DNA of 64,000 nucleotides from positions 44,410-108,409 of the forward strand of contig JAKLFA010000005.1 of the NCBI GenBank assembly GCA_022711395.1. The letters are read 5' to 3'. The stretch is from Candidatus Omnitrophota bacterium. GTDB lineage: Bacteria > Omnitrophota > Gorgyraeia > Zapsychrales > JANLHA01. Below, piece after piece: positions 2-55,744 of the stretch. The first letter of the stretch is position 1. The number at the start of each line of letters is the position of its first letter. The position numbers were made by a program, and so were the translations under genes. The notes beneath the pieces are model-generated. The model did not search any database. It was not told the origin of the DNA and was given only the letters and a program-made list of their open reading frames with translations.

Positions 2-3000
2 GGCGATCATGCTCCGGTCCGCCTTCCGATGCGCGGCCGTTTGAAGGTCACAGGGTTCAGGGCGCAAGACCCTCAGGCCTTTGATGCCCGATGGGGCTTG
101 TCCCTGGGCTGGCATCCGGCGTTTTTTAATTATGAACTCGCGTTTTTCTCAGGGGAGGAAAATGAAAACAATGCCAACAGGATCCACTTGAGCATTTCTG
201 ACCGCGGTATTGTTTGCTATGTCTGCATGAGAGGCATTCAGGTCAGCCGGTATAGTCAGGGCTTTGGGCGCATCCTGGTTGAATATGCCTTTTCACACGC
301 GCGGGCCCTTTCACAGAGGCTGGGCCTCAATCCGCGCTGGGCCATGATGTATTATACCGTCGGTCCTTTGGAAGAAACGGATGTCGGCGAGCCGCATGAG
401 AAATTTTTCACGAAGATGGGCTTTATCAATTCGAAGGCTGTTTCTGATCCTGAGGGCGATGCCGGGAAGCTTCTTTCGCAGTATCCGGAAGGATGGCCGA
501 TGAATGGCCGCGGTCACTGGTTCAAAAAGCTGGAAACATTTAACGCTCCCGTGGAGGAGACTAACGCCTCGGTCCTTCTGGCGGAAGAGTGGGCGGGCGG
601 CCTTGAAAAGGAGGACCGGTCATCGGATCAGGCTGTCAGCCGGTTTGAATATTACGGTTTGCGGGATGAGGTGAACTTGCGCGAACAGGTTCCGGAGCCG
701 AACCCGCTGTATGTCGGTGAAGAAAATATTATTGTGTCCCGCGGGATCGATGGCCGCCGATTCTTGTTCACTGAAAACATCTTGAGCTGCATGGGCCTTG
801 CCTTCAGGGCGCATGCCGGCGGAGAGGTCTGGTATGGACTGGGCCATATCGGTTACGCCACCGAAGCGCGGCTGAACCGGTTCATTCGTAAATTGGAATT
901 GTTGAAAGAGCGCGTTCTTCATCCATCTCGGATCGGTCCGGTCCGGGATCTTGAGATCGTTGTTTATTTTTCCCGGGATTATTCAGAAAAGCGCAACCAG
1001 GCCGTGGAATTGTTCCTGGCGGATCTCATGGCGTCGTATCCATCCGTGATGGTCAAAAACGTTGCCGGGCAGGGGACCGGGATCCCGGTTTACATGGTCA
1101 TCCGGCAGGGCGATTGGACGGTCGGGTATGGGCACAGAGGGGTCAGCGAGAAGGTCCTCGCCGGATGGGAGGCGAAGAAGGAATCAATCCATGTATTATC
1201 GGTGTTTCCGGAAGCATTCAGGAAATGGAACCTTCCAGGGGCCACGCCGGCCGAGGCTTTAACCATGGCAGCCGGCAGTGTTGCCGTTGAAGACCCTATA
1301 CACACTGTGAACGCGGCGGTTTTGGGAAACATGACCGGATACGCTCAGAAATATTTCGACCGGGCCCTTCCTGTCAAGAACCAGCAGGACGGTTATCCGT
1401 TGTCATTCGGTGTGATGTTTGGCCGTCTGATGGCGGTCCTGGCCCTTCCGTTGGCTTTAGCGGGGATCGCGTTCTTGGCTCCTTTGGTGAAGATCTCATC
1501 GCCGGGGCCAGTCTTTTTGGCGCAGCCCAGAGCCGGATATCAGGGCAGGATCTTTAATGTTTGGAAATTAAGAACGTTCACTGACATGCGCTACAGCCGG
1601 CACTTTAAGAGAACATGGTTGGGAGCTGTTTTGCGTCCCACGGGGTTGGATGAACTTCCGCAGCTCTTCTCTATTATAAGGGGCGATATGCAGTGGTTCG
1701 GCCCGCGGCCGCAGCTTCCGGGGATCATTGATGAAAGCTATGTTGAGGAGATCTTAACACAGACGTTGCCCGGGTATTTTTCTGCTGTCGGCCTGGACCG
1801 CCGCAAGAACCGTTGGGACACGATCTCTTTAGAGGAACGCAAGCGTCTTGAGCTTGAGCAGATTGACAGGAGGTCTTTGATAGCGAATACCCGTCTTTTG
1901 ACAGGGCTGATCATCTATACTGTTCCGTTCATGATCTTAGGCCGCAGGCCGTATCAGAACGCGAACGTTCCGGCGGGCGCCGCGGTCAATTCTTCCGTTT
2001 TGAACGGTGATACGGTTGAGAGGCTGATCGCTCATTTGACTGCTGATCCAAGCCAGGGACGGATGGACTATATTTCAACCATGAGCGAAGGTGTTTTCTG
2101 GAGCCTGGACCCGGTCGATGGATATTCTGACTTGAGAAGCGTCTCTCTTGATCTTGGGCCCAGCGGCAGAGTCCTGATACGGACGAACCGGACAGAAGGT
2201 GGGCTGTATTTGAACGCATCCTCCGAGCAGGAACAGCGCTTGAAAGAGATCTTTATCGCGCGGGCGGAGCTTGAGAGGACGCGTCAGCAGAAGGTCTCCA
2301 GGTTCGTGGATCTGATCAGCGGGTTTGACCGCGCTCGAAGGGAATCAATGGCTCCGGCCGGCCGTGTGAATTCTGCGGTCCTGAGCCAAGGGCCCGTAGA
2401 GAACGATGCGGAAAGAAAAGATAAAGAGGGCCCTGGTTTCAATGTCAACCGCCGGGGATTTTTGAAGTCGCTGGCCGTCCTTTGCGGCGGGTTGGCGGTT
2501 AACGGCGGCGGGGCGGTCGGAGTGATCGCGCAGGTGACAAAGGCCCGGCTGCCGTCACAGATCGCATCGCTGGTCGGATATTATCTGAATTCCGGGCACG
2601 CCAGCATCGTTAATGAGGTGCAAAGCCGGCTCGCTCTTTTAAAAGACATCATGTTCTCAACGCGCCAGGCGCCGGTGTTCACCCATGCGGACAAGGTTCA
2701 GTCCATCGACGCGCAGGTTTTTTATATGCTGTTGCACGTCTTCAACTGTTCAAAGAAAGAGGCGGACGCTTCGGCTCTTCCTGATCAGGACCAGGTTAGG
2801 AGTTTGAAAGAATTTTTCGCCTCTTCCAACGAAGATGAATTCCGTGAGCATGTTAAGGCCTTCGCCCAGCACAGGCCGATCATTGACTGGTATATCCGCC
2901 GGTCTAACCTGAGCTTGGAACCGGAGGAGCTGATGACCGAGAGAGGAACGGCGCATTTTATCGTCATGCAGGACGCCTACAATCACATTTCATCCCAGCT

Positions 3001-6000
3001 TGATCAGGAGGGATATATCCTGCAAAATCTAGAGGGCATTTCTTCAGAGCTTGAACGGTTCGCGCGATCCTGGGGGACCAGAACGCTTTTGCAGGGTTTG
3101 CGTGACCCGAAAAGCCTGATATTCAATAGAGGTTTTGTGTTAAGAAAACAGATCTACGATATTGATATGAGAACTCTCGGCATGGACCCGGAATCTCCGA
3201 AGGCCAAAGAGTTGCGCGAGCGCCGTAAGGCCCTGCAGGAACAGTTGGACCTGGATGACCGGATGTATGCGCCGGACGACGCCGAGGACATGGTCTTTGA
3301 TCAATTCGCGCTGATGCGCTGGGACGATGACGGCGGGGCAGTAGTGGCCGAGCGTGGCGAAACCAACGCCGCTGTTTTAGGGAGCGGGAATTCATCATCT
3401 GGGCAGCGGCGACAGGAATTCCCGGCCATCGCCTATGAATATCTTGCGCCGCAGGTCACGATGCGGAAGAATGTCGAGTCAGGCTGGTATGATGTTCATT
3501 CGGTCAAGCCCGGGCCCAAAGGGATCGATCATCTTTCCAGGGCGGAGGTCGTGTATCTGGAAAAACGTGTTTCACAGATGATGCGCCAGTATTTGCCCAA
3601 CGCTCCGCCGGTCATTATCATACAGCCGCTGCGTTCCTGCGTCAGCAGTATCACCGACGAAGGCCTGCAGCTTCACTGGCAGCTTCTCAGCCAGGATGAC
3701 CGGTTTGTCCAGGGAGTCCTCCAGTATCATGAGCGTTTCCACCTTAAACCATTTTTCTACGATGACCCGCAGGCTTTCATCAAGACCCTTGAAGAATTAA
3801 GCCGTCCGCATAACCGCGCCATTGTTGAGGCCATGGTGCATGTTTTCAAGAATTCTCAGGCCAGTGAGATCGTCTTAAAACCAGCCCGGATCTTAAACGC
3901 CTTCGAAGCGATCCTTGACGGCGAAAGCATTCATGAGGTGATCGAGGCCATGGCGCGAACGGGCGGGTTTCACGGCGAAGAGGTCTGTGGAGACGCCGAG
4001 GATTTTGACTGGAGCGGCGTGGAGTGGACAACGCTGTCGCCGGGCTTCGGGCACGCGCAGGAGGCGATGGAGGCCCGCGCTGCGGATCAGCGAAGGGTCT
4101 TTTTAGAAGAAGTCCAAAAGGAGATCGAACTTCTTCAGGGGCAAAAAAGAGCCGCGCCGCGGAAGGTCCTGGCTTTGCTTCGCCTGGTGGCCGCTGTCGT
4201 CGGGCTGCATCAGGAATTGCACAAGGCGATCGCTAACATGGACACGCTGGGAATTGTGTTTTCCGGCGCGTCGGATGCTTTAAAGGCCGAAGCCCTTTCT
4301 GTGATCGCCCGGGCCAGGGAATACGCCTTTGTTCCGCGGTTGATCATTCTGGAAGTTTATGACGAGGTTTTGGAAGAGGAGATCCAGTGCGCGGACGCGG
4401 CCCGCATGACACGGCTTTTGAACACGAAGAGTCAGGCCCGCAAGGAGGCAAAGGACCTGCGCGAGGAGATGAGGGCCCGCATGACCCAAGCGGTCATTGA
4501 CTTTGTCCGCGTTGCTGTCAGAGGCATGAATTTGAAGGTCAACAAGAGCTTCTTTAGGGCGCTTGAGGTCTTTGAAATGTATTTGGGCAAAGGGCACTCG
4601 ATCGGGTATTTCCAATACGATGATGAGGCTTTGGAAGGGCTGTTCAAAAAGACGGCTCAGATGTTCGCTCTTCCGGCGGTCTTGCGGCTGGTCATCGAGA
4701 CCGCAGCCACCCTTCGCCCCGTCTCCGAAGGCGTTTATTACCGTTTGTTCCCGGACCTGATCTTAGACGAGCAAGAGGCCTGGCGCCTGTTCGGGGAGAG
4801 TTCCAGGTCCTCCGGGGACACGAATTCAGCGGTGCTTTCGGCGGCCCAAGATGTGGAACTCAAGCTCTTTATGCATTTAAGACCCAGAACCGTGGTCGCG
4901 GCTTTGGCCTCTTTGGTCGATCGCCATATGGGGATCCAGCTTTCTTTCAGGAACGGAGCGCGAAAGAATTTTACGGTCATTGAAAAGCAGGGGTCGCTTG
5001 AAACTTTAGGCAAATGTCTGAACAAGAGGGTCACGCTGAGGGCCCGGGGCCTTGACCATGAAATAACGGGCGCGGATCTGAATGAAGCCATCACGATGGC
5101 GGCTGAATGGCTATCGAGCGATCATTTTGATCCTGATTTTCACCGGGATGACGGAGTGCTCAAGGCGGAATTTGAATACTATCAGCGCCTGTTACGGGAG
5201 AAGGCGGTGCGCTTCAATGGGAGACGGGGGCTCCATTTCTCCGAGGATATGTATGTGACGGATCCGATCCTGGGGAACGCATTGCCGGTCATGGCGTCTT
5301 TAGCGTCCGGACTCGAGCAGGAATTCGGGCTCGAAACATTCATTGAAGACAGGGTCGATCTGCGGAGGGTGACCCTTAGAAAGATTGATTCCAACGGGTA
5401 TAGACGCGTTTTTCTCCGTCGGAATTCAAGGCAGCGGATCCTTTACAACGCTCCTTTGGGATTGCGTTATAGACCTGATCTTTTGGCCATTCATGAATGC
5501 GTTCAAGCTTTCGTGTTCCACGCCCAGGACCATTTTGGAAAAGATCTGGTCGAAAAAGCGGCAGACTTCTGGGCCCGGAACGATCAAGGGGAAGGAAGTT
5601 CGGTCCAACCGGCCTTAAGAAAAGTTGTTGAACGTCTTTCTCAACAGGGCAACGCCGCTGTTCTTGCTGCGGGCGAATCCGGAGATTGGATGCTCAGCCG
5701 CCGTCAGATGCTGAAAGGCCTTGTTTTGGCCGGAATGGCGCTGCCGTTTATGACCAGCCGCGCTTACGCTGATGAACCGACGGTGGAGGAGGTGTTGACC
5801 GAACTTTTGAGCACGCAGACCGCGCATGGTTTGATCAAGAGCTTTAAAGGCACGAGCGACACGTATATGCAAAATCAGGCGGTCACTTACGACCAGGCCG
5901 TAGCCGGGATCGCTGCTCTTGCGGCTGGACGGACGGTGGAGGCGGTCAGGATCTTTAATTTCTTCTATAATCAGCACAACGGTGGAGACCCCGCCTGGAA

Positions 6001-9000
6001 CGGTTTTGTGAACATGTACGATGCCGTCCGCGGGGTCAAGGGAAATGAGCTCACGATCCACGTGGGCCCGAATGTCTGGATGGGAATGTTCTGCCTTCAT
6101 CTGTATATGGCGACACGCGACGCGCGGGCGATCACGCTTGCGCAGGCGTTGCTGAATTGGGCGATGGGACTTAACCATCGCGACGGAGCTGTTGCCCTCG
6201 GGCCGGTCCCCAATAACAACATTTATTCAACGGAACACAACTTAGATTATTTTGTCTTCCTGAAAGGGATACAGCCGTTATTGTCTGAAGCGCAGGCGGC
6301 GCTTGTCCAGGCGGAAATGGACGGGGTCGCAACATGGCTGAGCACCAGGGCCTATGATCGGGCGAGGATGCTTTTCAAACGCGGCGCTTATGAGAACCCT
6401 GTTGTTTACGCGACGGACACTTCAAGCTTCGCGCTCCTTTTGGGGTCGCAGGTCCTGGAAAACTGGAACATCGTCCGGCCGACGTTCATCAGCCGCTCGG
6501 AGACGGCTTACCGCGTGGGCACGCGAGGGTTTGATGTCGCCAGCGCCGAGAACGCCAATTGGGTCCCGCGGGCGCGCTACGTTTTCAGGGAGTTCACTCT
6601 TCAGATGGCGCTCGGATTTTTGGTGATGGCCGACGATGAACATGACCGTGGAAATTTTGCCCTGGAGAAGACGTATCGCGATAAGGCGCAGTTGTATGCC
6701 TCTCAATCCGGGACCGGCGGAGATTATCAATATTGCGAACAGACGGGCGTGCAGCTCTTTTATGATATTCCCAGTTGGAAGACGATCAACGGCCAGTCGG
6801 CCTCGGTCATGGCCTGGAAAATATTGGCATTGCTCGGTTTTAATCCGTTCGGATTTGTTCCAAAAGTCAGGCTGTTCACCCGCAGGATCGCCGCAACCGG
6901 CGACATGGAGTTGACCCTTCGCAAGGAAAGCATGGCGCCTCTTGCTGTTGAGATTTTGTATTCCGATGACGTGGCTGATCCGGCGAGCTGGAAGACCGCC
7001 GCCAATATCGAAATGGACGCTTTGACGGCTGTCTGGGTGGATAACGGCTCTCAGACCAGTCTGCATCCATCCGCAAGCCCCAGACGATTCTATAAAGTTT
7101 CCGCAAGCGCGGCAACGAACGCTGCGATCCTGCCTTCAAAACTGGTCCCGGGACAAACTCCGGGCTGGGTCACGAAATTTAAGGAATCTCTTCCTGAAGG
7201 ATTCGTTGAGGCCGCTGAATCCCAAGAGGGCGAGCAGGGCGCGGGCAAGATCCAGGCGCTGTCGATCTGCCAGGATTCTCCCGAGGTCGGGAACATTCTG
7301 GTAGAGCTCTACGGACAACTTCTTGATAACCGCATGTCGCCGGACGTCCGCAACCGATCGACCTATGACGCGTGGATGAAGATCAAGGAACGGATCGATG
7401 AGTGGGAGGCGACGCTGGCAGTGTGGTTTACGTATGTGGCGTTCCAGACCGTGCTGAACATTGAACAAAAGAAATTAGAACAAAAGAAAGCTCCGGCGCC
7501 TTCTGTTAAGGCATCCGCAGAAGTCGCTACAGAACCATCTTCAAACGGGCGGGAAGAAGGGGCGTCTGCCCGCGAAGATGAGCGTTACTTGGGGATTGTT
7601 ATCGAGGTCGACGGGTTCGGTGAGGTCACTCTCACTGAACGCATCGCCCGGAACAGCCGGACGCTTCTTTTTAAGACCAATCATCCCGGTCTTTTGATCA
7701 AGCTGTTTGATCTGAACCACACGAGCGACGCCGGAAAGCTGGATCCGGTCGTCGTTCAGAACTTTGAGCTGGAACGCAATAATTTCATTGAGATCGCCAA
7801 GATCGAAGAATTAAGGCCGCACATTCCTCAATATTACCAGAGCGGGATCCTGGAAGAGCGGAAATACGCTTTTATCGCTATGGAATACATTGACGGTGTC
7901 GATCTTTACAGCTGGAGGGAAAAAGTTCTTGCCGAGTCCGGAAGGCAGAGTTTAAGCGATGTGGAATTCTGGCAGATGATGTCTCAAGCTCTGCTCATCT
8001 TGAGGATCTTCCATAAGCATGACCTGATCTTCTCCGATTATAAATTGGAGAACATTTTAAGGCTTTCAAACGGGTCTTTGAAATTTGTGGACCTGGGCAG
8101 CATCTTTTTGATCCACGGGGCGGTCAAGCCGCAGGATTTTCCGTATTCGGCGACCATGGAGGCTTCAGAGGTTTTTGAGAACGCCGTGACATTGAAGAAC
8201 GGAAAACCGCTGCCGAAAATCTCCGATATCTTTTCCGTGGGCGTGAGCCTGTTCGAGTTTGCCACCGGGCAGCATCGTTTGACCCTGAGCCGTGAGTATG
8301 CGGATATGCTTTTGTCCCATTTGCGGGTCATCAACCCGCGCATGTCCGAGATCCGGCTGTATTTTAATTATTATCCTCACCTGAAAGGAAAACTTCCGAC
8401 GCTGGAAGACCAGCTAAAAGAGGGATATGTCTTTTTCGCTGATTTCTGGCACATGCTGCACCAGGTCCTCAAATACACCCATGACGGTTATGAGGATATG
8501 GCGCAGGATGAAAAAGACCGCGCGTTGCTGGCCTCCGGAATCGATTTTATCCGCGAGCAGCTGGGTGACCTGGCCTGGGCGGCTGAGCCGATCGCCCTGG
8601 CGACGGCGTTGCGGCGCATCCGCGCCCAAAGCATCCATGACCTGCTTTTAAGCTTTCACAGCCCGTTAAGCGCGGAGGTCATTGACGATCTTCATCAGAA
8701 TAACTGCTTTGTGGATTGCGTGGAGTCACAGTTCGGACGGCAGGATTTCACTCAACAGCTCAATACCTGGAACGTTCGGCTCAACCCGCACACCCGGCAT
8801 TGGACGGTCCAGGCGCCGGCCGCTTTCGCGCGTGACAGGGAGGAAGCTGTTTCGCTGTTTTTGAAACAGACATTCACGGATGAGGAAGGCCATCGGTATT
8901 ACCACATCACAAGTATGGAAGAGGCTGATGAATTTCCGAACGGTGAAAAATTGACCCTGGCGCATTTACAAGACGATCCTTACGCCTGGCTGGGCGCTGA

Positions 9001-12000
9001 CAATGCCGAAGGGGCCGGCAAACACAGGACGCGCGATGAATGGATCGCATTTTTAAAAGGCCTTGCCGCGAATGTCCCGGCCGGAGAGAGAAGGTCCATG
9101 AGCGAAGTGGCCCGGCATTCGGCGGGGGCGGTCACGCGCGAGAGCATCAAAGCCGCCTTGAAGTATCACGGCATTTCTTATGAGGAGGCGGGGCTAGAGA
9201 GCGGACGGACAAGGGATGGCTGGGTGACATATTTGACGGCACTGGTTCCCAAAATCCCTAAAGGCGAAGAAAGAACATGGTCCAACATAGTGAAATATTC
9301 GCAAGGTGCCGTTACGGCAGCGCAGATCAAGGGGGCCATACGGCGGCACGGGATCTCCCGAGCAGAGGTCGGATTGAGCCGGAAGTGGGAAGACAGACAG
9401 AAGACCGTTGAATATCTCAAAGGCCTTGTTGCCAAGATCCACGCCGATAAAGAAAAGACCGTTGCTGAAATGGCCAGGCAGTCGGGCGGAGATGTTTCCA
9501 GGGAAACGATCAAATTTGTGATGAGGGACCATCATATTACACGGGAAGAAATCGGTCTGAAAGGGGAGTGGGATGACCGGGAGGCTTGCGTGAAGATGGT
9601 CCGTGAAGCGGTGGCTAATATTCCAGAAGGAGAGCCCAAAACGGTTGCCAATACGGCCCGGCACTCAGGAGGCAAGTTCGACAGGCATCAGTTGAGGACC
9701 AATATTTTAAAGAAACACAAGCTGTCTGCGCAGGAGCTTGGCATCACGGAGAAAAAGCGTTCCGGAAAAAATGAAAAGCGCGGCCGTGACAAGACCATCG
9801 AATTGATCAAGCAGGCCATGGCCTTGATACCGTCCGGCGAGGCCAAGACGGCGGAGAACGCTGCGAAGTACTCAGAGCGTTGGACAGTCTCATCTTTGCG
9901 TTCGGTGATGAGCCGTAACGCGATCGTATCCGCGGACGTCGGGTTTGATCTGAAACCCAAGGGACGCAAAAAGTCTTCTCAGGCGAAAGCGGTGAAACCG
10001 CGCCCGCGGCCACAGGCAAAGAAACGCGCGGCCAAACGCAGATCAGGGAAAATGAGGGTGTCCATGCCGCGAAGCCGTGAAGAGGCGATCGCGTTTTTGA
10101 ACGAGGCGGCCGGACGGGTCCCGGAGCATTTGGCAAGAACACCGCACATTGTGGCTGATTTTTCTTGCGGCAAATTGACCGCCGAGAAGATCCGGAGCAT
10201 CGCCAAGAAATGGGGGATCACGGGCAATGATGTCCCCATTGCCCTGCTTTTAAAGGTGAAGATCGTTCCGCAGAAAGAAGCCCGTTCAGAACAGCACGAC
10301 CAAGATGACGCGGCCGGCCATGAACAGACCAATAGCGCGGTCATTGACCCCCGCGGAGGGAAAGATTTCGGCGATCAGAAAGAGGTCTTTTGCTGTCGTT
10401 TTGAGAAAGCGCGGGACGCTGATGAAGACGCCTGGAGAGAATCACGCGTCTTGAAACGTCTTTCGATCATCAGCCAGATCGGCTTAGAGTGGAGAGCGCT
10501 TAAGGTCGGGGAACCGGCGCAGAAATGGATCAATGAATTAAGAGAGTATCTGCTTTATAGGATTTGGACAAAGATCCAGAGGGAACATAAGGGTGACTTC
10601 TTTTTCCCGCAGAACATGGTTGATGTAAACCACGGATTAAGCCAGCCGTTTGTTTTTGTGGTTGATGAGCTTTTGAAGAACGCCTTTGATGCTTGCGCAG
10701 CAGCGGAACGCGACGGGGACATCGAACTCGCGGTATCTTTCTCGGACGGACTTTTTGAAATGGCTGTTTCAGATCAAGGGATCGGGGTGCGCAAAGGATT
10801 TTCGGATGAAGAAGGTTTTATTTATCTTGAGTCTTTGATCGACGCTCAGAAACGACAGGCGCTGCGGCTGGAGTCCAGCGACAAGGCCGGGCTGTTATGG
10901 GCCCAGTATTTAACGGTGATGCGGGGAGGAAAGATCTTTGTTGAGTCTCCCGGCCGTAATGGCTACAGGACAACGGTCGGCATCGCCTTGCCGGCTGAGG
11001 CCGTGGTCCGCAAAGGCCTTTCAAAATTCGGACCGCAGACCAATGGGGCGGTCCTTTCGGCATACGAAGAGGAGGCCGTCCTAAAGAGAACGCAGGCTGT
11101 CGGGCAGAAAACGGATGATATAGCGACGAGGTTCCTTCAAAGTCTGGCCGTAAGACATGGCCTTCGTCAGGATCTTCCGAATGAGGAGATCATAGGCCGC
11201 CTTTATTCCGGTTCCATTTTAACGTTAGCTGAAAAAATGCTTTTGGAACGCTATGGTCAGGCCTTGAAATTGGTCGCTCCGGGCTCATCGATCGTGGATG
11301 CTGAATCGTTTTGGCTGGAGAAATTCCGCAAACGGTCTCCGGAACAAAAAGAGGATTGGGAAATATCCGGAATTATTATGGATCTTGCCGTGATGACCAA
11401 AAAACATCTTGTAGGGTTTTTGCCTGTCCTTGAAAGAACCCTTCCTCCGGAACAATGGTGGTGGGTTGAGGACAGTCTGCAGTTGCGCGTGATCCGGTTC
11501 GCGGACCAGGTAGATTTCGCCAAGGCTCTTTCGATGGAAAATTCCAGGCAGATCCCCTTTACGTCGGAAGAAGAAAATGAAGAATTGATGGTGTTTAATT
11601 TCATCCTGCATGATGTGTTTTTTGAGTCCGGATATTTTGGGTTAGCGGCGTTTAAGGACGGGGAGCCGGCAGGGATATATGGGGTTTCGATCGTAAGTGA
11701 AATGAAGGAAATCTTTGGTCGGGGATTATACGTTGTTCCATGGGCCAGAGGCAGGGACCCGAAAGTCGGATGGGTTCTATTGACGAGGATGTCCGAGCTT
11801 TTTGCTCGTAACGGATATAAATATTTTCATATTCCTGTGGCCAATCGTCCCTCAGCGCAGGGATTCTTCGAGAAGGTTTCAGATAATTCAGGCGAATTTC
11901 CTTTCTATGCGCAGACCAGGCGAAGTGATGAGGGACGCATTCAGCAGCTCACTGTCCATTTGAAGGAACGGTTTTTGCCAGTGAGGATACAGCTTCCGCT

Positions 12001-42000: not shown

Positions 42001-45000
42001 CCTGGGTGTTGAGGAACGGGCGGACTGGAAAAAAACAGAACAGTCGGCTGATCTTATGCAGGCATTCAGAGCGGAGTGCGAAAGCCTTCAAAAGAAATTT
42101 CAAACAAGCGCATGGAATCCGGGGATCTTCGGATCTGCGGATACGAATGCCGCAGTGACAGGGAATCGTTATGAAAAGAGCCTGGCGAAAGAAAGGCCTT
42201 CAGGCCGCCTGTGGATGCGGGCTGTTTCGTTGGCTGCGATGCTGTCGTCAACCGCCGCTTTCGCGGCCAGGCCTTTGAGCGACACCAACCAGCTTGCTCA
42301 GGTGTCTTCTGACGCGTGCGCATTTCCGGCGCGGACATTCCTTGAAGAGGTCGAGTTTAAGATCTGCGGGTATATCCCGTTCTCAGCGGATGGAAAGATC
42401 GCGGATATTTCTTTTTCAGGCTGGGGCGAATTTTTGATCACGGCCGTTTTGCTCATCCTGACAGCCGTTGCGCTGAAGGTTATTTACACTCCTAACATAT
42501 TGAAGAAATTCGCGCTGCCGGAAGGCGTTCAGCGCGGTGTTTTGTCCGTGATTTGGGCTGGTCTGGGAGGATTGTTGGGGCTCATCGTTCTCGGCGGGTC
42601 CGACCACGGGATTTTAAGCGCGGTCCTTGGCGCCGGCCTTGGATGGTTCGTTCACAAGGTTTGGAACTTACGTGAAACAATTTATCAGCGCGCGGCAAAA
42701 AGCACGGTCATTGTTTATCTTGCTCTTGTCCCGTGGGTTCTTCCGGCGGTTCTGACCGGAACATTCGTAAACGGCCGGGCAGTATTTTTCCGGCCTGAAA
42801 ATTCTCCGGCGGCTGAAGGAATTCTACAAAAGCTTGAGAAGCCGTTCCCCGAAATCTATCAGATTGCGCGAAAGAGCGAAGTTTCGATCATATTGGCCCC
42901 GGGTTCCGTCGGGCCGTTGGCGGAAGTGTATAAACCCGTTATTGGGGCTGTCACGGTGAGGCTGGATGAGCGGGCCGTTGATCTGTTCCCCGAACAGGCG
43001 GCTGCGAATCTCGCCCACGAACTAACGCATGTTGCGCAGCGCAAAGGAAATTTTCCAGGAATTTTCGGGAATGTGATCTGGGCTTTTGAGGGAAGGGACC
43101 TTTTGGCGAATGAGAGCGAGGCCTATGAGGTTGAAAAAAAGGTGTATGACAGGATCGCTGGAGGCGCTACGTATCAAACGGTAAGCATGGTGGATCTGAA
43201 GGCGTTCTATTCTGAGACCAGTCGGGATTATGTGGTTTCGTTCTTTAAACGGATCGGTTCTTCCGTCGGGCTTGTTCTGGTGTTTTTATTCTGGCCCCGG
43301 ATCATCCTTCGGTTTAGAAGTCTCGCGAGAGGAGAAGTGTTGCGCGGCAGGGTGTCTGTGCTGGCGGATGGTGAAATCATCAGAGACAACGGATCATGGG
43401 CAAAGGAAGGTGATGGCGGGCGCAATTCCGCCTGCCTTTCCGCTGAGCTTGACACGGTCACGCGTGAGATCCTGGATATTGATTTTCCCGGGATCATCGC
43501 GCGTTCCAGAGAAAATTGGCTGCGGCTGCATCGAGAATTTTTCGGCCATTTCGCGCCTGACGGAAAGGCCTCTGACGAGGAACGAATGGCCTGGGAAGAG
43601 GCTTTGAAGACGATCAATCGAACAGCATCTTTGAAGGCCGGAACGCCGCCGATGAGGCATATTGATTTTGTTCAGCAGGCGAAAGATCTGAATAAGAGCT
43701 TTGAAATTGAGCTGCGGCAGACAGATTTCTCATATCAGCCGCGCAAAAGTCTGTTGCTGATGGCCGCGATGGTCGGGCGTATTTTGGCCGGACGGCAAGC
43801 GGAGGAGGCGCCGGCGGCCGTTGTGGGAGCGGAGATTCAACGCGTTCTGACTGAAGCGAATCGCGCTAAGAATTATCTGGGTTTTGTTTTTCCGCAGGCA
43901 GCCGGGGTCTTTTGCATTGATTATTTGACTGCCGGACTCGCTCCGGCCGGTCTGTCATCGGGGGCAGAGGACGCCTCATCCCAGGCCGGCGCTGCGAAGT
44001 GGAAGAGCGTTACGCTTATTCCAGCCTCCAGCGAAGCTCCTTTAGCGTTTCTGCGTGTTGTTTTTGACAGGCCGGTCCAGATCATCGTCGCGGGAGAGGG
44101 CTGCCCGGTCTGCGATTTCGCGCTGCTTCGTGATTTCAGAACGTTTGGGCGTTTATCTGCGCTGCGGATCACTCAAATGAAAAAAGAGGATTTTGAAGCA
44201 GAGGAGGCTTTGCGGGCGTTCACTTTTGATGAGAATACGCCGTTTGCGGACCAGCAGCGCCGGCGTTTTGCCTTTCTTAAGAGAATGGCCGACCATTTCG
44301 CCTGGCCGGTTCTGTATCGTCCATATTGGTTTACAGCGAAAAGGTTCGCTGAATCGGTGGGGCGCACGCCTCAGGAAAGATTTTTTATTGAGAAGTTCTT
44401 TGCGCTCGGGTTTATGTCCGGCGGCGGCAATGAACGCTGGCCTTATGACCGGGAGATGATCGAGTCGGGTGAAACAAAGGACTTGGTGAGAAAGTCCCTG
44501 GAGATCGAAAAAGAGGCGCAGAAGCTTCAAGTCAGGATCGGTTTTTATCAGCGCTTTGGGCTCCCTGAAGCGGCCCAGGCCCCGGGCGCTTCGACCCGTC
44601 AGCAGATCTTTGAGCAGGGCAAGCAGGTGAAAGCGAACGCGCTTCAACTGGCCGCGGACCCGCTGTTCGCGCCTTTGATGCGGATCTTTGTTACTCCCGA
44701 CGGAAACAAGGGATGGCTGGTCCATGAACGGGAGGTCAATGAGATGGTCAAGCGTATCGATCAGCAGATCGCCGCCGTTCTTTTGGCCGCGCGTCCGGCG
44801 ATCGAGGCCGCCCAGGCGCGTTTTTCGAAAGATCATCAACAGATGTTCTTATGCGCGTTGACGCAAGCATTGTTGAATATCATTCTTGGCAAGAGCAAAT
44901 ATTCCAACCGGGAGGAAATAAAGGCTTCCTTAGCGGCCGGTTATGGCCTGTCGGGAGTTGAAATTCCGTCCGTGAAGAGCGTTTTGGATGTGGCTTTTCA

Positions 45001-48000
45001 AGAAAAATTTGAACAGGGCCTCGAGGCATTTTCCAAAGAACTGCGGGATGTTCTTGAACCGAACCATGATGAAGCCATCGGCGAGGAAATCGCGAAGAAA
45101 GAATCTTTCCTGTGGGATTCGCTGGCCGGGCCGTGGGCTCAAACTTTAAGCCTTGAACTTGATCCGGTTTTGGCGGAAGTCCAGGGATTGCGGCAGCAGC
45201 TTTCCGATCCATCTCAGATAGAAGCCTCTTTGGAAACAGCGCTCCAATTGCGCTCAAGGATAAAGGAAGGCGATGTCGATGGGGCCATGACCGCGGCGCA
45301 ACGGTTGAGAGCGCAGGCGAAGGATGAAAATAAAACCAGGATCGGGAACATTCTGCGCGAGTTCGCCGTTTGGGCTGTCGGCCGGATTGAAGAGAGGCTT
45401 AAGGCTCATGATGATCAGCGGGTTGAGGAGATAACGAGACGGAGCCGCGCGGCGCTGCAGGGGTTTCCGGTTTTAGATGAATTCAATCAGCTTTTGAAAT
45501 CAGCCCGTCGACAACTGATCGAATCAGACGGCAATGCTGTTCAACCCGTCGCGCAGGATGAAAATGCGCGCGCGGCGCAGCAACTGCTGCAGGAATTCAA
45601 AGACCATTTTCATGCCGGCCGCGACCGCCTGATCCGGGAATTCCTGGAGCTTGCCGCGCAGGGCCGTGGCCTTGAATTTGAGGACCGGGAAAAGCTTCAC
45701 CGGTATTTTCTTCATCATGGCGGCGGACTGAATTATCGGGCCAAAGAATTGCTTGAGTCGGTCGAGAGACGCAAAAAGAAGGGGACCAACGCGAGCGTGT
45801 GCGGCGAGGATGCTTCCCGTCAAGAGGAAGTTCTTAAACATGACATGGAATATGCCAAGAGCTGCGGGGTTCCGCTGGATTTTCTTCAGAGCGCCAGGGA
45901 TTTTATTTTTACGAATTATGTGAGGATCGCGTGGGAGATCTTGAAGCATCTTAAGGCCGGATATCAGGGACAGGATCAGCTGTCTTCCGATTATCGCGAG
46001 GCATTTGTGCAGCTTTTCCGGCATCACGGGATCCGTTCGATCCTGGATATCGGTTTTGAATTCGGGGAATTCCTGCATATGTTCTATCCGGTCTGCCGGG
46101 ACGCCGGTGTCAGGCTGTTCGGCCTTGAAATGGAAGAGCGCCGAAGACTGGTTGTCCGGGCGGAAGAGGCTGAATTTGTTTTTGGTGACGCGGAACAATT
46201 GAACGAACATCTGCCTGGGCGGACGTTCGATCTCATTGTTGCCTCCGGCGTCTGCGGGTTCATACAGTTCCATGCCAAGACTGTTGCGCCAGCATGGATG
46301 CCTAAAAATCATCGCAGTTTACGCGAGGCCTATGAGAGCAGCATGACGATCGTTCAGCAGGGAGTCGGGGCGCTCAGCGAGCATCCTCGGGCCGCCATGT
46401 TCGTGGCGTCATTCAGCTCATTTCATCTGCTGGACGCTTCTGAACTGGAGCGAAAGGGAGTGCGGGTCTTAGTATGGAACACGGAAGAAATGCGGGTCCG
46501 CAAAGAAACGAATTCGGGCCAGGCGATCGAAAGCTCTCAGCAATATGCTTATGACAGGTATCAGGCCCGACGGATATTCAGCATTTGGAATCATGGTTCC
46601 AATGTCGCGGTGTTCGCAAAAAATAATAACGGGAGCTCTGACCCCAAGACCAACGCGAGCGTTTTGGACCCGCCAGTGATGGCTCATTTAAATGGATGGA
46701 CGCCTATCGAACGATTGAACTTTGACAGTTATTTGACGTGGGTCTTTAAGGCCGCGAAGAGAATTCCCTGGAGCCGGGGCCGGTCAACACGAGGGGTGCT
46801 TACGGTCTATTGGCTGGGTGGGGTCAACGGTAAAACAGACGTCCCTCTTGCGACATATCAGGGGCGCAGGGCCCATTTTGAGCGCCAGCTGAAAAATCTG
46901 AAAAAAGCAGCTTCGATAGCTGAACTTCGAAAGGTCACAGGATTATTGCTTGAGCACGGCTTTGTGCCCGAGCCGGAATTCGGATGGTATGCCATTCAGG
47001 TTCCCGTAGGGATCACGCTTGAAAAATGGGCGCAAAGAAATCAGGGGGATATTATGCCGGCGCGTGTTTGGCCGCTGGTCCGCGCGGTCTTTAAAGCGAT
47101 GATGGTGATGGAGCGGCATGGTTTGATCACACAGGACTTTTCGGATAGGAACGTGATTATCAACGGGACGGAAAAGCGCCCGATCGTTCACCTGCCCGAT
47201 CTTGGCAGCGTGGTTTCCCATGACGAAAAGGATTTAACGGATGAATTGATCGGAGTGACCCAGGCCTGGGCCCCGCCGGAGGTCAAGTCCTACAGCCCGG
47301 TTGCTGATCCGAGGGTCCATGTGTATCAGATGGGCAAGTTTCTCTACTATTTAGCGCTTGGCGTGTCTCGTCACGCTGAGTTGGCTTTGAAGGACACAAG
47401 TCCGCAACAGATCCATTTTATGCTCGGAAAAAAGTCCTGGGCGCCGCTTATTCCTGTTCTGCTTAAGGCCCTGGCTGTGTCGCCGGAGGATCGTTACGCG
47501 AGCGTGGCGGAGCTTTATGGGGATGTCAGAGGCCTGTTTAGCGGAGCGCCGGAATATTGGCGGCCTGTCCGCTCTCAGGAAATCGAGATCCCCATCAGGA
47601 TCATTTATGATCAGAGACAACGTGGCAACGCTTCTCAAGGAATGAATTCCGCGGTCCTCGAAGGACGGGCAGGGGAAGAAAAAGGTTCGGCTGTCCGCCG
47701 GTCGCCGGGTGAAGTTCTTCATTTGGAGGTCCCTTCCGGGAAGTGCCCTCCAGTGTTAAGGGATTATATTTCCGTTCACAACCGGATCTTGGAATTGAAG
47801 GAGGCCATTGCGCTGGGATTTTTGGAAAAGACGATCGCTCAAATCGAAAGTGGCGATGATCAGGGCCTTTTGGCCAAGTGGCGGGCGATGGAGGCCGGCC
47901 TGCGCAAGGTCTTGACGGGCCGGGGGTATGGCCTGAAGATCTTATCGGAAGATCACCCGATCACTCAGGGCCGCGCCGGTTATGTCATTGGGCGCACCAT

Positions 48001-51000: not shown

Positions 51001-54000
51001 GCGGGTCTTGAATGCGCTCATGAAGCCGGAAGCCTCTTCTTCGCCCAAAAATTGGGCGGTCGAAGAAGACTTTGTTGATCTTATTCGGAGGATCGTAAAT
51101 TTCACGCCGGTCCAGGAAATGGAAGCCCCTTCAAATCAGGATGAACAGGAGTACTGCTTTGAAGTCCGAAGAACGATCTTAACAACACCGTGGCGTTGCC
51201 CAATTTATGCGGCCGCTCTGGCTTTGATCGCGCAGATCATTGTGGGTCGGCTGAAAAAAGAATTTGGCAATGGCCGGCGGTGGCAGGCCCGTGTTGTGCA
51301 TGGCGTCGCAGAAGGGTATGCCGGACCGCTTTCGGATATTGATGTTTATGTGGACATTTCACAAGAGGATGTTCCTGTGGCTGAGATCAAGCGAAGGGCG
51401 GTTGAGCTCGATCAGGAAATTCTCAATCAATTACAAAAAGCCGGTCTTTTTTCGGGGTCACGAAATTTTATTGATATAAAAGTCAATCGGCCATTGACCG
51501 AGAGAGAAAAACTTTATCACACAGACTTGAAAACTATGGTTTCAACGATCCTGAGTGATTGGTGTGGTCATTGCGCCGATCCGGCTTTGAATCGACTGCT
51601 TTGCCGTTACAAGGATAAGTTCCTGCAGGATGAAAAAGAGAGCGGCGACCCGCAACACATAAATTCAGCGGTGTTACGGAAGCACGAGGGGAGGCAGCCG
51701 CAAAAAGTGGCTCTGTTGAGTGTAAATGATTTCGGGAAAAAAGATCGGTCGTCCGTTGAAGCCATGGCCAGGATTTTAGAGGAAGGCGGAAAGATTGTTG
51801 TCGGGGAACGCAACATGGCCCGTTGGCCGCGCGCCGTGCGCGCTGTTTTGGGAGACGCGAGTGTTTTTGATTTCGATTTCAATCCGGCGGGGGTATCGGA
51901 TGATACGCACGCAAGAGAATTGTTCCACTCGCTGGTCCGTGAAGGGTATCTTGTTTTTGTTGAAGGAGGCTATGTCTGGGCCAAAACACCCGACGAGGAA
52001 GAGTTGTCTTCTTTGGGATTTCAAACGCGGGAGATCGATGAGGTCTTCCGAGTCTGGCGGACGACCGAACCCGGACGGGCGGTGACGGCTGTTTTGGATA
52101 AGCTTGAAACGGAATCCTCCATCTATGCCGTATTGTGCGGCGGAAAACTGGACAGCTGCCTGTTTGTGGTGTTTTTAAAGATATTGCACTATGCCTCTCG
52201 GCGCACAAAAGACCTTCGCGTGATCATTAATGAGGAGGCGGTGAGCTTTTATCCGGGAAAAAGCGTTGAACAAACTTTAAAGGAGCGTTACTTTCCCGCC
52301 GTCAGGCGTTTGGGAATAGAGCCGTCTATCGAATATTTTGATGAAGAATCCACGCAAGGGCCATCAGGACAAAGGCCTGCCGTGAGCTTCAGGATCTATC
52401 CTTCAACATCAGCGTTTCGGATGGATGTTCTTTCTGGCGGGGATCGGTCTTCCGTTCCGCAACGCGCGACACGGCTTGGCTGCTGGGCCTTTGTTCCGTC
52501 GCTTATTTTCGCTACATCAGCTCAGGCCGCGCCTCATCCTGCGCTGACAGGAGGGGGGGACGGATTGCCGTTCTTGATCAATCTGGCCGGGTTTGTCTTT
52601 TTTGTCGCCTGGGTCATGTCGGCCTGGAATAAAAGGTTTTTGTACGTTTGGTGGCATAAGGATTTCTTTTTAACAGTCGGATGGGGGCTGACGACGGTGT
52701 TTGGCCTGTTCCCGCTTTTTTGGGGCACGATTCCCGATGAGCAAGGCAGGTATGTTTCCTGGGCGTGCGCGACGGCGTCTCTTTTCTTGAATCTTGTGTT
52801 AAGGGTGGCCACAGGCTGGATGGAGTATAGGGAAGGGAGGAGGCATGAAGAGGAACGACAAATAAAGACGGGAGAGCAGAAAAAAGTTTTCAAAGATCCT
52901 GATACTTCGAAAGACTCGAAGGAAGGTAAAACCAACGCCGCGGTGCTGAGAACGGATGAGGCAACGGGCAGCAGTCAACCCTTGGAGCAGCCGGCGCCTT
53001 TATATATGGGAAGCGACCAGAAGACCCGGAGTTCTCTCTTCAGGGTCGGGGCGCCCGTGTGCGCAAACTGCGAGATCTTTTTTGTGCGCGCTCTCCGCAA
53101 CCGGGCGCTTCAAAGAGAAATCGTCTGCGATGGAGAGACGCGCCGCAATGGGAGCCGGTATTCGAGGAAAGTGTTTTTGCATCGCCAGGAGGGAGACCTT
53201 TCTGCCGGAAGAGAGATTGAGTTTGCTGTTTTACCGTCCATAAACAGGCTTGGATATTATGGAAAGCCCCTCGGCCTTCTTTTGACGCCGATTATGATCA
53301 ATGGACGGTCTTTGCATGGGATGATCGCACTTAAGGAAAGGCTGTTTGGGAGATGGGTCCTGCGCCGGCATTCGGCGCTTTTACGCCTGCTGGAGCTCAA
53401 TGGTTTCGGGCCTCAGATATGGGACAGGATATTCGCTGATGAGGCTTTGACTTACGAGGAAATTGAAAAACTCCAGGGACTTAAAAATTTTCTGCTCGGT
53501 TCTCCGCTGCGGATCCAGGTCCGGCAAGGTATCGATATTAAAAATCCTGAGGAATTTGCGGAGTTGTGCTACAAGGGGACCGATCATCCGTTTTCGTATA
53601 TTGATGTTATTCCTGCGCAGGAAGATTTAAAGAGAAACCCTTCTTTGGCGGGAGAGGAGGGGCCTGATCGTCGCAACTCGTCCATTTTACCGGAGAGAGG
53701 GGCAGAGGCTGTGGCTGACACAGACGCAGTGCAGGAGGCTGATGAGGAGTCGGGCTGGTCTGTCGTCCGGGAACTTTTAACCAGCCGCTTATATCTGAAG
53801 AAGACGATCCTGGAGAATGTCCCTGTTCCGCCGCCTGCCGTGCAGATCAATGCCAGCGATCTTTGTAACAATCATTGCCTTCAGTGCATCGGCGCGGTGC
53901 TGGACCGGGAGAAAGGTTGTCCTGCAGAACTGGAAGCGGCTGCGAAGGTCATGCAGTCCGATGAGATCGACATGCTCATCAACGATCTTGAAGCGTATAA

Positions 54001-55744: not shown

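Follow-up and report, generated by a model that had tools for sequence, protein, structure and literature searches.

We analyzed a 64,000-nt stretch of the genome of a Candidatus Omnitrophota bacterium (contig JAKLFA010000005.1, positions 44,410 to 108,409; hereafter the window), in which one forward-strand reading frame is open from base 1 to nt 55744 and carries a hexapeptide of the form [TV]N[AS][AS]VL at the junctions between its modules. The recurrence of this hexapeptide is confirmed here, and the best supported explanation, to which we give a probability of about 0.6 on the sequence evidence, is that it is a maturation or cleavage site of a chromosomal polyprotein. The host gene belongs to the known giant multi-enzyme proteins of the Omnitrophota; the motif itself is new, and we found no description of it in the searchable literature.

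The giant open reading frame (ORF) contributes its C-terminal 18,571 codons to the window (nt 2 to 55744, plus strand, counted from the first ATG at nt 29). The first-pass annotation had taken it to be complete there, but this is contradicted both by the absence of a stop upstream of nt 29 and by a 6,662-aa public fragment (P0031), which matches window residues 1 to 4574 at 99.96% identity and adds 2,077 aa upstream, including three further motif copies and a TNAALV variant. The true start therefore lies upstream of the window, and the protein comprises at least 20,648 residues. Another fragment from the same metagenome-assembled genome (MAG) accession series (P0006; 2,278 aa, seven motif copies) probably comes from the same gene, even further upstream, and since its C-terminal 273 residues match the upstream part of the giant gene of a relative (L007), the true length is probably about 24,000 residues. 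At more than 10,000 aa and with about 15 distinct Pfam families, none dominating, the protein resembles the multi-enzyme giants described from this phylum (bioRxiv 10.1101/2023.11.21.568195; bioRxiv 10.64898/2026.06.07.730766), in which unrelated Pfam families are likewise tiled along ORFs of more than 10,000 aa, and its families (methyltransferase, HATPase, GNAT, NUDIX, HIT, and radical SAM) are in line with theirs. Its architecture matches the "multi-enzyme metabolic cluster" class of the latter preprint (bioRxiv 10.64898/2026.06.07.730766), where cleavage is not mentioned; neither paper describes a junction motif.

The strict form of the motif, N[AS][AS]VL, occurs 35 times in the giant ORF, compared to a mean of 0.08 and a maximum of 1 in 200 residue shuffles (about 400-fold enrichment), and in a survey of short peptides the hexapeptide was far ahead of all others as the sole strongly enriched one. 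There are no strict matches in the other five frames of the window and hence none in the downstream genes, as had been claimed, and an artefact of composition is not borne out by these counts. A relaxed pattern, x-N-[ASG]-[AS]-[VAI]-[LIVTC], recovered 47 matches, one of which (KNSAAI at aa 7733, 20 aa ahead of a canonical site) is probably spurious. Setting it aside leaves 46 sites, all on the plus strand, between nt 560 and nt 54877; these limits are exactly those of the first-pass annotation, which had counted 45 sites. Distances from site to site range from 30 to 1,339 aa, in agreement with the earlier range of 24 to about 1,340 aa if the 24 aa between adjacent motifs was meant.

A sequence logo of the 47 matches shows information limited to the six positions: Thr (24) or Val (10), less often Ser, Met, Ala, Ile, Arg, or Gly, at position 1; Asn in all 47 at position 2; Ala or Ser at positions 3 and 4; Val in 42 at position 5; and Leu in 41 at position 6. 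The residue after the Asn is Ala in 24 of 47, and position 4 is Ala in 31 and Ser in 16. Outside the hexapeptide there is only a weak preference for Gly, Glu, or Arg just before it and for Asn, Gly, Ser, or Ala just after it. The surrounding 15 residues on each side are polar (polar fraction 0.66 versus 0.54; hydrophobic fraction 0.22 versus 0.35), a bias reached by 0 of 2,000 random samplings, and the five residues preceding the motif are only 11% hydrophobic. Two motif copies stand exactly 24 residues apart without a domain between them in the window (25892 to 25999), where VNSSVL at 25892 to 25909 (aa 8622) is followed by VNSAVL at 25982 to 25999 (aa 8652), and again in P0006 (aa 904 to 939). 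The two spacers are unrelated in sequence; such a spacer may be what remains of a module that was lost, or a short peptide that is released.

Codon use at the Asn, Ser, Val, and Leu positions equals the gene background (p = 0.5 to 0.8), and Ser is drawn from both the AGY and the TCN boxes, which argues that selection acts on the peptide; codon sharing between copies at positions 2, 3, 5, and 6 is likewise as expected at random, and third positions carry little information at the DNA level. The claim that the motif is conserved at the protein level only is therefore essentially right, except for a small excess of shared codons in the DNA: Ala at position 4 is encoded by GCG in 23 of 30 sites (background, 41%), Thr at position 1 by ACC in 14 of 24 (background, 25%), and four pairs of sites have identical DNA over motif positions 2 to 6, where 0.37 pairs would be expected. 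This excess suggests that some junctions were recently copied. Subsets of junctions have near-identical 18-mers in common, of the GTGAATTCCGCGGTCCTG type or the ACCAACGCCGCGGTGCTG type (e.g., 23285 to 23302, 25982 to 25999, 35090 to 35107, and 52931 to 52948), and the TNAAVL copies at 35090 to 35107 (aa 11688) and 52931 to 52948 (aa 17635) are identical in DNA. Through these shared 18-mers, GAATTC arises at 9 of the motif sites, and CCGCGG at 11.

The motif splits the window protein into 47 modules of 30 to 1,339 aa (median, 294 aa), none of which holds more Pfam domains than a single protein would. Every Pfam domain falls within a single module and none is interrupted, so the earlier statement that the motif lies between domains and never inside one holds. 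The identifiable content is that of unrelated free-standing proteins: a phosphoglycosyl transferase; two protein-kinase-like modules and one HATPase_c module; several GNAT acetyltransferases and several SAM methyltransferases, one of them behind TNASVL at 21359 to 21376 (aa 7111); a SMODS-associated NUDIX domain; a TPR array, directly followed by TNAAVL at 33920 to 33937 (aa 11298); a PEP-utilising enzyme; a PLP enzyme, preceded by VNSAVL at 38933 to 38950 (aa 12969); a HIT hydrolase, preceded by the variant TNAAVV at 41495 to 41512 (aa 13823); a large NAD-glutamate dehydrogenase; and a radical SAM/SPASM enzyme, preceded by RNSSIL at 53672 to 53689 (aa 17882). There is also a weak, sub-threshold match to a GT2-type glycosyltransferase, and about 20 modules have no annotation. 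Module m2 (aa 433 to 652; nt 1325 to 1984, plus strand), identified by Pfam and by PDB sequence search as a monotopic phosphoglycosyl transferase (PglC), corresponds end to end to a free-standing 205-aa PglC with a solved structure; the aligned part covers PglC residues 21 to 120 (aa 467 to 564 here), the ends being extrapolated.

Three pairs of modules are paralogous at 34 to 46% identity, and in two of the three the alignment begins at the motif itself. The pairs are m35 and m43 (37712 to 38932 and 51659 to 52930), opening with SNAAVL at 37712 to 37729 (aa 12562) and INSAVL at 51659 to 51676 (aa 17211); m17 and the C-terminal module m46 (17411 to 18325 and 54860 to 55741), the former with TNASVL at 17411 to 17428 (aa 5795) as its first residues; and the GNAT modules m16 and m22 (16751 to 17410 and 23285 to 23887), whose first residues are TNAAVL at 16751 to 16768 (aa 5575) and VNSAVL at 23285 to 23302 (aa 7753). 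One pair has in common a C-terminal three-helix membrane anchor just ahead of the next motif.

Some motifs are followed within 0 to 30 aa by what look like signal peptides, deep inside the chain. Twin-arginine translocation (Tat)-type segments occur 21 aa past VNSAVL at 2366 to 2383 (aa 780), where NRRGFLKSLAVLCGG (2447 to 2545, plus strand) is conserved in L007, and 10 aa past GNAAVL at 5648 to 5665 (aa 1874), where we found SRRQMLKGLVLAGMALPFMTSRAYA (5696 to 5770, plus strand). Their NRRGFLK and SRRQMLK...AYA stretches fit the twin-arginine consensus (S/T-R-R-x-F-L-K, a hydrophobic region, and A-x-A), and they become N-terminal only if the chain is cut. Sec-like segments ending in ALA and AFA follow TNASVL at 18326 to 18343 (aa 6100) after 13 aa (NKRRFISAVLAVLGVASVLFIEQTALA; 18383 to 18463, plus strand) and the variant TNAAVT at 42143 to 42160 (aa 14039) after 14 aa (GRLWMRAVSLAAMLSSTAAFA; 42203 to 42265, plus strand). 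In P0006, a TNSAVL copy is immediately followed by a textbook lipoprotein signal, RARTVLAAGLAGLVALSG↓C. Of the 15 modules that have any hydrophobic segment, 6 have the first one within their initial 50 aa, compared to 2.2 expected (P = 0.013); transmembrane segments begin, for example, 26 aa downstream of VNSAVL at 12029 to 12046 (aa 4001) and 24 aa downstream of the VNSAVL copy at aa 8652. Two successive N-in signal peptides without a transmembrane segment between them would be incompatible with one uncut chain, but this argument is only suggestive and is weakened by a borderline hydrophobic helix between the two signals (aa 1375 to 1393; hydropathy, 1.57).

Comparison with relatives shows the motif persisting in diverging surroundings. 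L007, from another Omnitrophota genome, has an orthologous giant gene at 55 to 60% identity that is open over all 11.7 kb and carries eight motif copies; the motif is kept at four of five shared junctions, amid linkers that have drifted apart both in sequence and in length. Corresponding junctions read TNASVL and TNAAVL (window, 560 to 577; aa 178), VNSAVL and TNSAVL, and TNAAVL and ANSAVL (window, 3362 to 3379; aa 1112). Whole modules have been gained or lost with their edges exactly at motif copies: m3 (aa 659 to 779), which starts with VNSSVL at 1985 to 2002 (aa 653), is missing in L007, where a single motif stands in place of two, and in a second relative (L008; 85% identical in DNA) TNAAVI and TNAAVL enclose an additional module of 582 aa where the window has only the variant TNAAAL at 54860 to 54877 (aa 18278). 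A protein fragment from another assembly of the same population (P0002) differs from the window protein at one of 2,121 residues, and this difference, N781I (window 2369 to 2371), replaces the motif Asn ahead of the first Tat-signal module; the change may be a sequencing error or else a naturally occurring form that cannot be cut. Searches for homologues by word index, using a three-module region or module m1 as the query, returned only an identical fragment or nothing, and of two metagenome scans, the first, with an alignment of module m4, found no relatives and the second found one.

A profile search run exhaustively over 1.84 billion representative proteins recovered 11 with several motif copies, six of which are fragments of the giant protein. 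Two of the remaining five are independent, P0006 and P0012, the latter being part of a complete 1,361-aa protein (P0030; GCA_029561995.1) that has seven motif copies and shares no module with the giant; its 13 neighbouring genes have no copies. The motif is thus, by sequence, independent of module content and not confined to the giant gene. The other three, P0007 and P0010 (eukaryotic-looking) and P0009 (tail-fibre-like, with HTNSAVLD repeats), are tandem-repeat proteins, and we rejected them as coincidental similarities. The decapeptide TNSAVIDPRG is identical in the window (10328 to 10357; motif TNSAVI at 10328 to 10345, aa 3434) and in P0030 (aa 737 to 746), otherwise unrelated proteins from different genomes; both have Ile at position 6, and this may be a distinct junction subtype. 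Two multi-module proteins from other Omnitrophota MAGs (P0013 and P0015), which have a CofD/YvcK module in common with P0006, are without TN[AS][AS]VL and have [GSA]-S-S-P-[ILV] in its place, close to or at the edges of modules (SSP count, 5 versus 0.21 expected in P0013 and 3 versus 0.45 in P0015). The SSP lies 15 to 21 aa past the end of CofD homology, and in P0015 also directly ahead of the CofD core; it may be a second, lineage-specific punctuation motif.

Along the rest of the chain, the motif scan placed TNSAVL at 4820 to 4837 (aa 1598), TNAAIL at 7115 to 7132 (aa 2363), TNGAVL at 11039 to 11056 (aa 3671), TNSAVL at 12593 to 12610 (aa 4189), VNSAVL at 13985 to 14002 (aa 4653), TNGAVL at 14582 to 14599 (aa 4852), TNSSVL at 16196 to 16213 (aa 5390), SNASVL at 21995 to 22012 (aa 7323), ANSAVL at 22667 to 22684 (aa 7547), ANAAVL at 23888 to 23905 (aa 7954), TNSSVL at 24980 to 24997 (aa 8318), VNSAVL at 26828 to 26845 (aa 8934), TNASIL at 30464 to 30481 (aa 10146), MNASVL at 30932 to 30949 (aa 10302), RNSSVL at 31364 to 31381 (aa 10446), SNAAVL at 32447 to 32464 (aa 10807), MNSSVL at 40292 to 40309 (aa 13422), TNASVL at 46649 to 46666 (aa 15541), and MNSAVL at 47642 to 47659 (aa 15872), together with the variants TNAAVT at 32210 to 32227 (aa 10728) and TNASVC at 45785 to 45802 (aa 15253). 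Such variants may be copies in decay, as the first-pass annotation proposed.

Three modules have features of their own. Module m1 (560 to 1306; aa 178 to 426) has no Pfam or PDB sequence match, is 48% conserved in L007, and contains an invariant LSCMGLA ... GLGH(I/V)GY pair (Ser-Cys ... Gly-His) with the Cys and His 19 residues apart, which is reminiscent of CheD-type cysteine hydrolases; a PDB profile search gave no match, and a single-sequence AlphaFold2 model (pLDDT, 41) was unusable. The C-terminal part of module m8 (about 8900 to 10300), behind a protein kinase domain, consists by eye of about six tandem units of ~70 aa (ARHSAGAVTRESIKAALKYHGISYEEAGL). Module m27 (26828 to 30463; 1,212 aa) matches sigma-70 family models (NCBIfam E = 0.0045) and a helix-turn-helix domain weakly, below threshold, and may be a transcription-factor-like unit embedded in the polyprotein. 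Downstream of the giant ORF are genes for an HMGL-like aldolase, a KDPG aldolase, and a radical SAM enzyme, followed by mnmA, mutL, and mutS.

Several complete proteins thus lie in one ORF, and a short conserved site stands at their junctions, in the window (46 sites) as well as in L007, L008, P0006, and P0031. On the polyprotein reading, a single frame of more than 20,000 codons would encode about 50 ordinary proteins, among them cytoplasmic enzymes, membrane proteins, and precursors of exported proteins, with the same short exposed peptide within a polar linker at every junction. A sequence-specific endopeptidase, presumably acting in trans, would recognise this peptide and cut in or beside it, probably during or soon after translation, and every released module would gain a separate N-terminus at which Tat, Sec, and lipoprotein signal peptides could function. 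One candidate for the cut is N↓[AS], because Asn is the sole invariant residue and is followed by a small one; the product would then start with Ala or Ser, both of which stabilise when N-terminal. The other is L↓x, because all specificity would then be on the non-prime side with a small residue after the cut; Leu closes the motif in 41 of the 47 matches, within polar linkers. The former candidate is akin to the sites of enzymes with a strict P1 preference, such as the 3C-like enzymes, which cut Q↓G/S/A, and the legumains, which use Asn. The cleavage function proposed in the first-pass annotation is partly supported by these data: indirect evidence in its favour comes from the signal peptides behind motifs, the match of modules to entire enzymes, the retention of the motif amid diverging linkers, and the insertions and deletions bounded by motifs, and the negative protease searches speak against it. 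We extend the proposal tentatively, at somewhat less than even odds, to the view that some Omnitrophota express a large set of ordinary proteins as one polyprotein, cut by a dedicated protease at 50 or more identical sites that are lineage specific (TN[AS][AS]VL here and possibly [GSA]SSP[ILV] elsewhere).

Several observations weigh against cleavage. No peptidase family was found by Pfam in the 18,571-aa window ORF and the 11.7 kb of L007 (E ≤ 1), in the upstream 2,077 aa (E ≤ 0.1), or in P0030 (E ≤ 0.1), and no protease was found by NCBIfam or by PDB sequence searches of the window ORF. The only protease-like signature recovered was HELTHVAQ (HExxH) in the membrane module m39 (43016 to 43039, plus strand), a faint 16-residue match to eCIS_core/DUF4157 (PF13699; E = 0.03; 14.9 bits versus a cut-off of 22), such that the suggestion of an HExxH module as the protease finds almost no support. 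The Tat-like segments match PF10518 only at E = 0.04 and 0.11, just below curated cut-offs; the first scores 14.4 bits with TIGR01409 (cut-off, 16.7), and the second has no match to that model at E ≤ 1. At one orthologous junction, that ahead of the PglC-like module, L007 has TSAAVL where the window has VNAAVL (1307 to 1324; aa 427), and this together with N781I indicates that the Asn is not absolutely required for persistence of the gene. P0030 begins with its own Sec signal, so its sites would need to be cut before or during export. The slight nucleotide-level similarity between junction copies is a further point of this kind, as is the treatment of such proteins in the 2026 preprint, which analyzes them as intact, very long membrane proteins (bioRxiv 10.64898/2026.06.07.730766).

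That treatment corresponds to the alternative that survives best, in which the giant stays one multi-enzyme scaffold and the hexapeptide binds a common partner (a chaperone, a scaffold, or a TPR module) or forms a standard hinge. The polar linkers around the motif, the TPR modules of the protein, and the negative protease searches are all consistent with it, but we consider it unlikely, since it leaves unexplained both the Tat-, Sec-, and lipoprotein-type signals right behind motifs deep in the chain and the equivalence of modules to whole free-standing enzymes. Hinges, moreover, normally need neither an invariant Asn nor a fixed six-residue sequence held over about 50 junctions and across species amid drifting surroundings.

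Much less probable is that the junctions are the footprint of recombination at the DNA level, that is, points of module insertion, deletion, and shuffling at which the peptide itself has no function. Module insertions and deletions do end exactly at motifs, and the GCG preference at position 4 and the four identical-DNA pairs point the same way; the random codon sharing at positions 2, 3, 5, and 6, the use of both Ser codon boxes, and the low information at third positions do not. Relatives keep the peptide rather than the DNA, the reverse of what a site of recombination would be expected to show. Recombination retains a minor role in the spread of junctions, to which the gain and loss of modules and the small excess of shared codons point.

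Separation without a protease, either by 2A/StopGo-like ribosome skipping or by asparagine lyase-type self-cleavage at the invariant Asn, would accommodate both the sole invariant residue and the negative protease searches, and we regard it as less probable still. The D(V/I)ExNPGP signature of 2A is not present; NPGP is missing, the nascent-chain segment upstream of the motif is not conserved, and the six residues hold all of the information, and to our knowledge 2A acts only on eukaryotic ribosomes. Known asparagine lyases (the nodavirus coat protein, the NPTH of YscU, and inteins) need a folded catalytic environment, but the flanks here are unconserved and polar. Pfam scans gave no match to Hint or intein domains; Ala follows the Asn in half of the sites, leaving no conserved nucleophile, and the residue before it is Thr or Val rather than the His of inteins, whose C-terminal His-Asn precedes Ser, Thr, or Cys. 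That the pattern is a chance or composition artefact, or that misassembly created a false giant ORF, has a negligible probability given 35 copies versus 0.08 expected, the identical sequence in at least six independent assemblies, and a frame that indels have not closed in relatives of 85% and about 57% identity.

Other known functions of short motifs were also considered and rejected. Internal translation starts do not fit a position 1 that is Thr (ACN) in half of the sites, with several of the Val codons being GTC. C-terminal sorting signals of the sortase or exosortase type (LPXTG, PEP-CTERM, GlyGly-CTERM, and the like) do not fit internal motifs followed by polar sequence, and no NCBIfam sorting-signal match was found in the modules that start with the motif. 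The N-glycosylation sequon N-X-S/T would require Ser or Thr at position 4, which is Ser in only 16 of 47 matches and Ala in 31.

The closest parallels in organisation are viral polyproteins processed by 3C, 3C-like, and NIa proteases, in which one ORF yields many mature proteins by cleavage at short conserved junction sites, and site and protease co-evolve within each lineage. One invariant residue followed by a small one is found in both systems (Q↓G/S/A in viruses, possibly N↓A/S in the giant), but the giant ORF lies on a cellular chromosome beside mutL, mutS, and mnmA, has no recognised chymotrypsin-like or other protease module, and is tenfold larger. MARTX and clostridial glucosylating toxins (PMC2900308, PMC2780291) are also large bacterial multi-module proteins with short sites in unstructured inter-module segments, and their sites have a P1 Leu followed by a small residue (e.g., GGSL↓S and EGAL↓G), comparable to the V-L of the giant motif, which is followed mostly by Asn, Gly, Ser, or Ala. 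These toxins are processed by a C80 cysteine protease domain at three to four junctions with an invariant Leu, whereas the giant ORF has no C80 cysteine protease domain in any Pfam scan, no RTX repeats, and no toxin context, and combines about 50 junctions and an invariant Asn with housekeeping-type enzymes and exported precursors. In the P97/P102 proteins of Mycoplasma hyopneumoniae, a short motif in disordered regions (S/T-X-F↓X-D/E) was used for fragment prediction at a time when the protease was unknown (PMC3322551); these are surface adhesins with few fragments and a different motif, compared to the dozens of unrelated enzymes here. Finally, the polyvalent proteins of phages and conjugative elements (PMC5512222) join many unrelated enzymatic domains in a single chain, and peptidase domains have been proposed to set these free, but they have 2 to 15 domains, belong to mobile elements, are assigned a role in conflict, and have no described shared junction motif; the giant ORF has a chromosomal context and no MPTase domain.

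Whether the giant genes of Omnitrophota, with 10,000 to more than 100,000 codons, encode single mega-proteins or precursors is a recognised puzzle. West-Roberts et al. took C39 and S8 peptidase domains as a sign of possible cleavage and stated that the cleavage points were unknown, which blocked further analysis (bioRxiv 10.1101/2023.11.21.568195). The hexapeptide would provide the first concrete candidate cut sites for such genes, which makes the precursor question experimentally testable, and it gives a rule by which giant proteins can be cut in silico into units for annotation and folding. If the polyprotein reading is true, it would imply a new site-specific protease of possible biotechnological use, and the junctions would offer a view of module gain and loss at fixed points. 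For the biology of these bacteria, it would mean that a cell uses, on a scale without known cellular precedent, the polyprotein mode of gene expression familiar from viruses, in place of the operon-style translation of separate genes.

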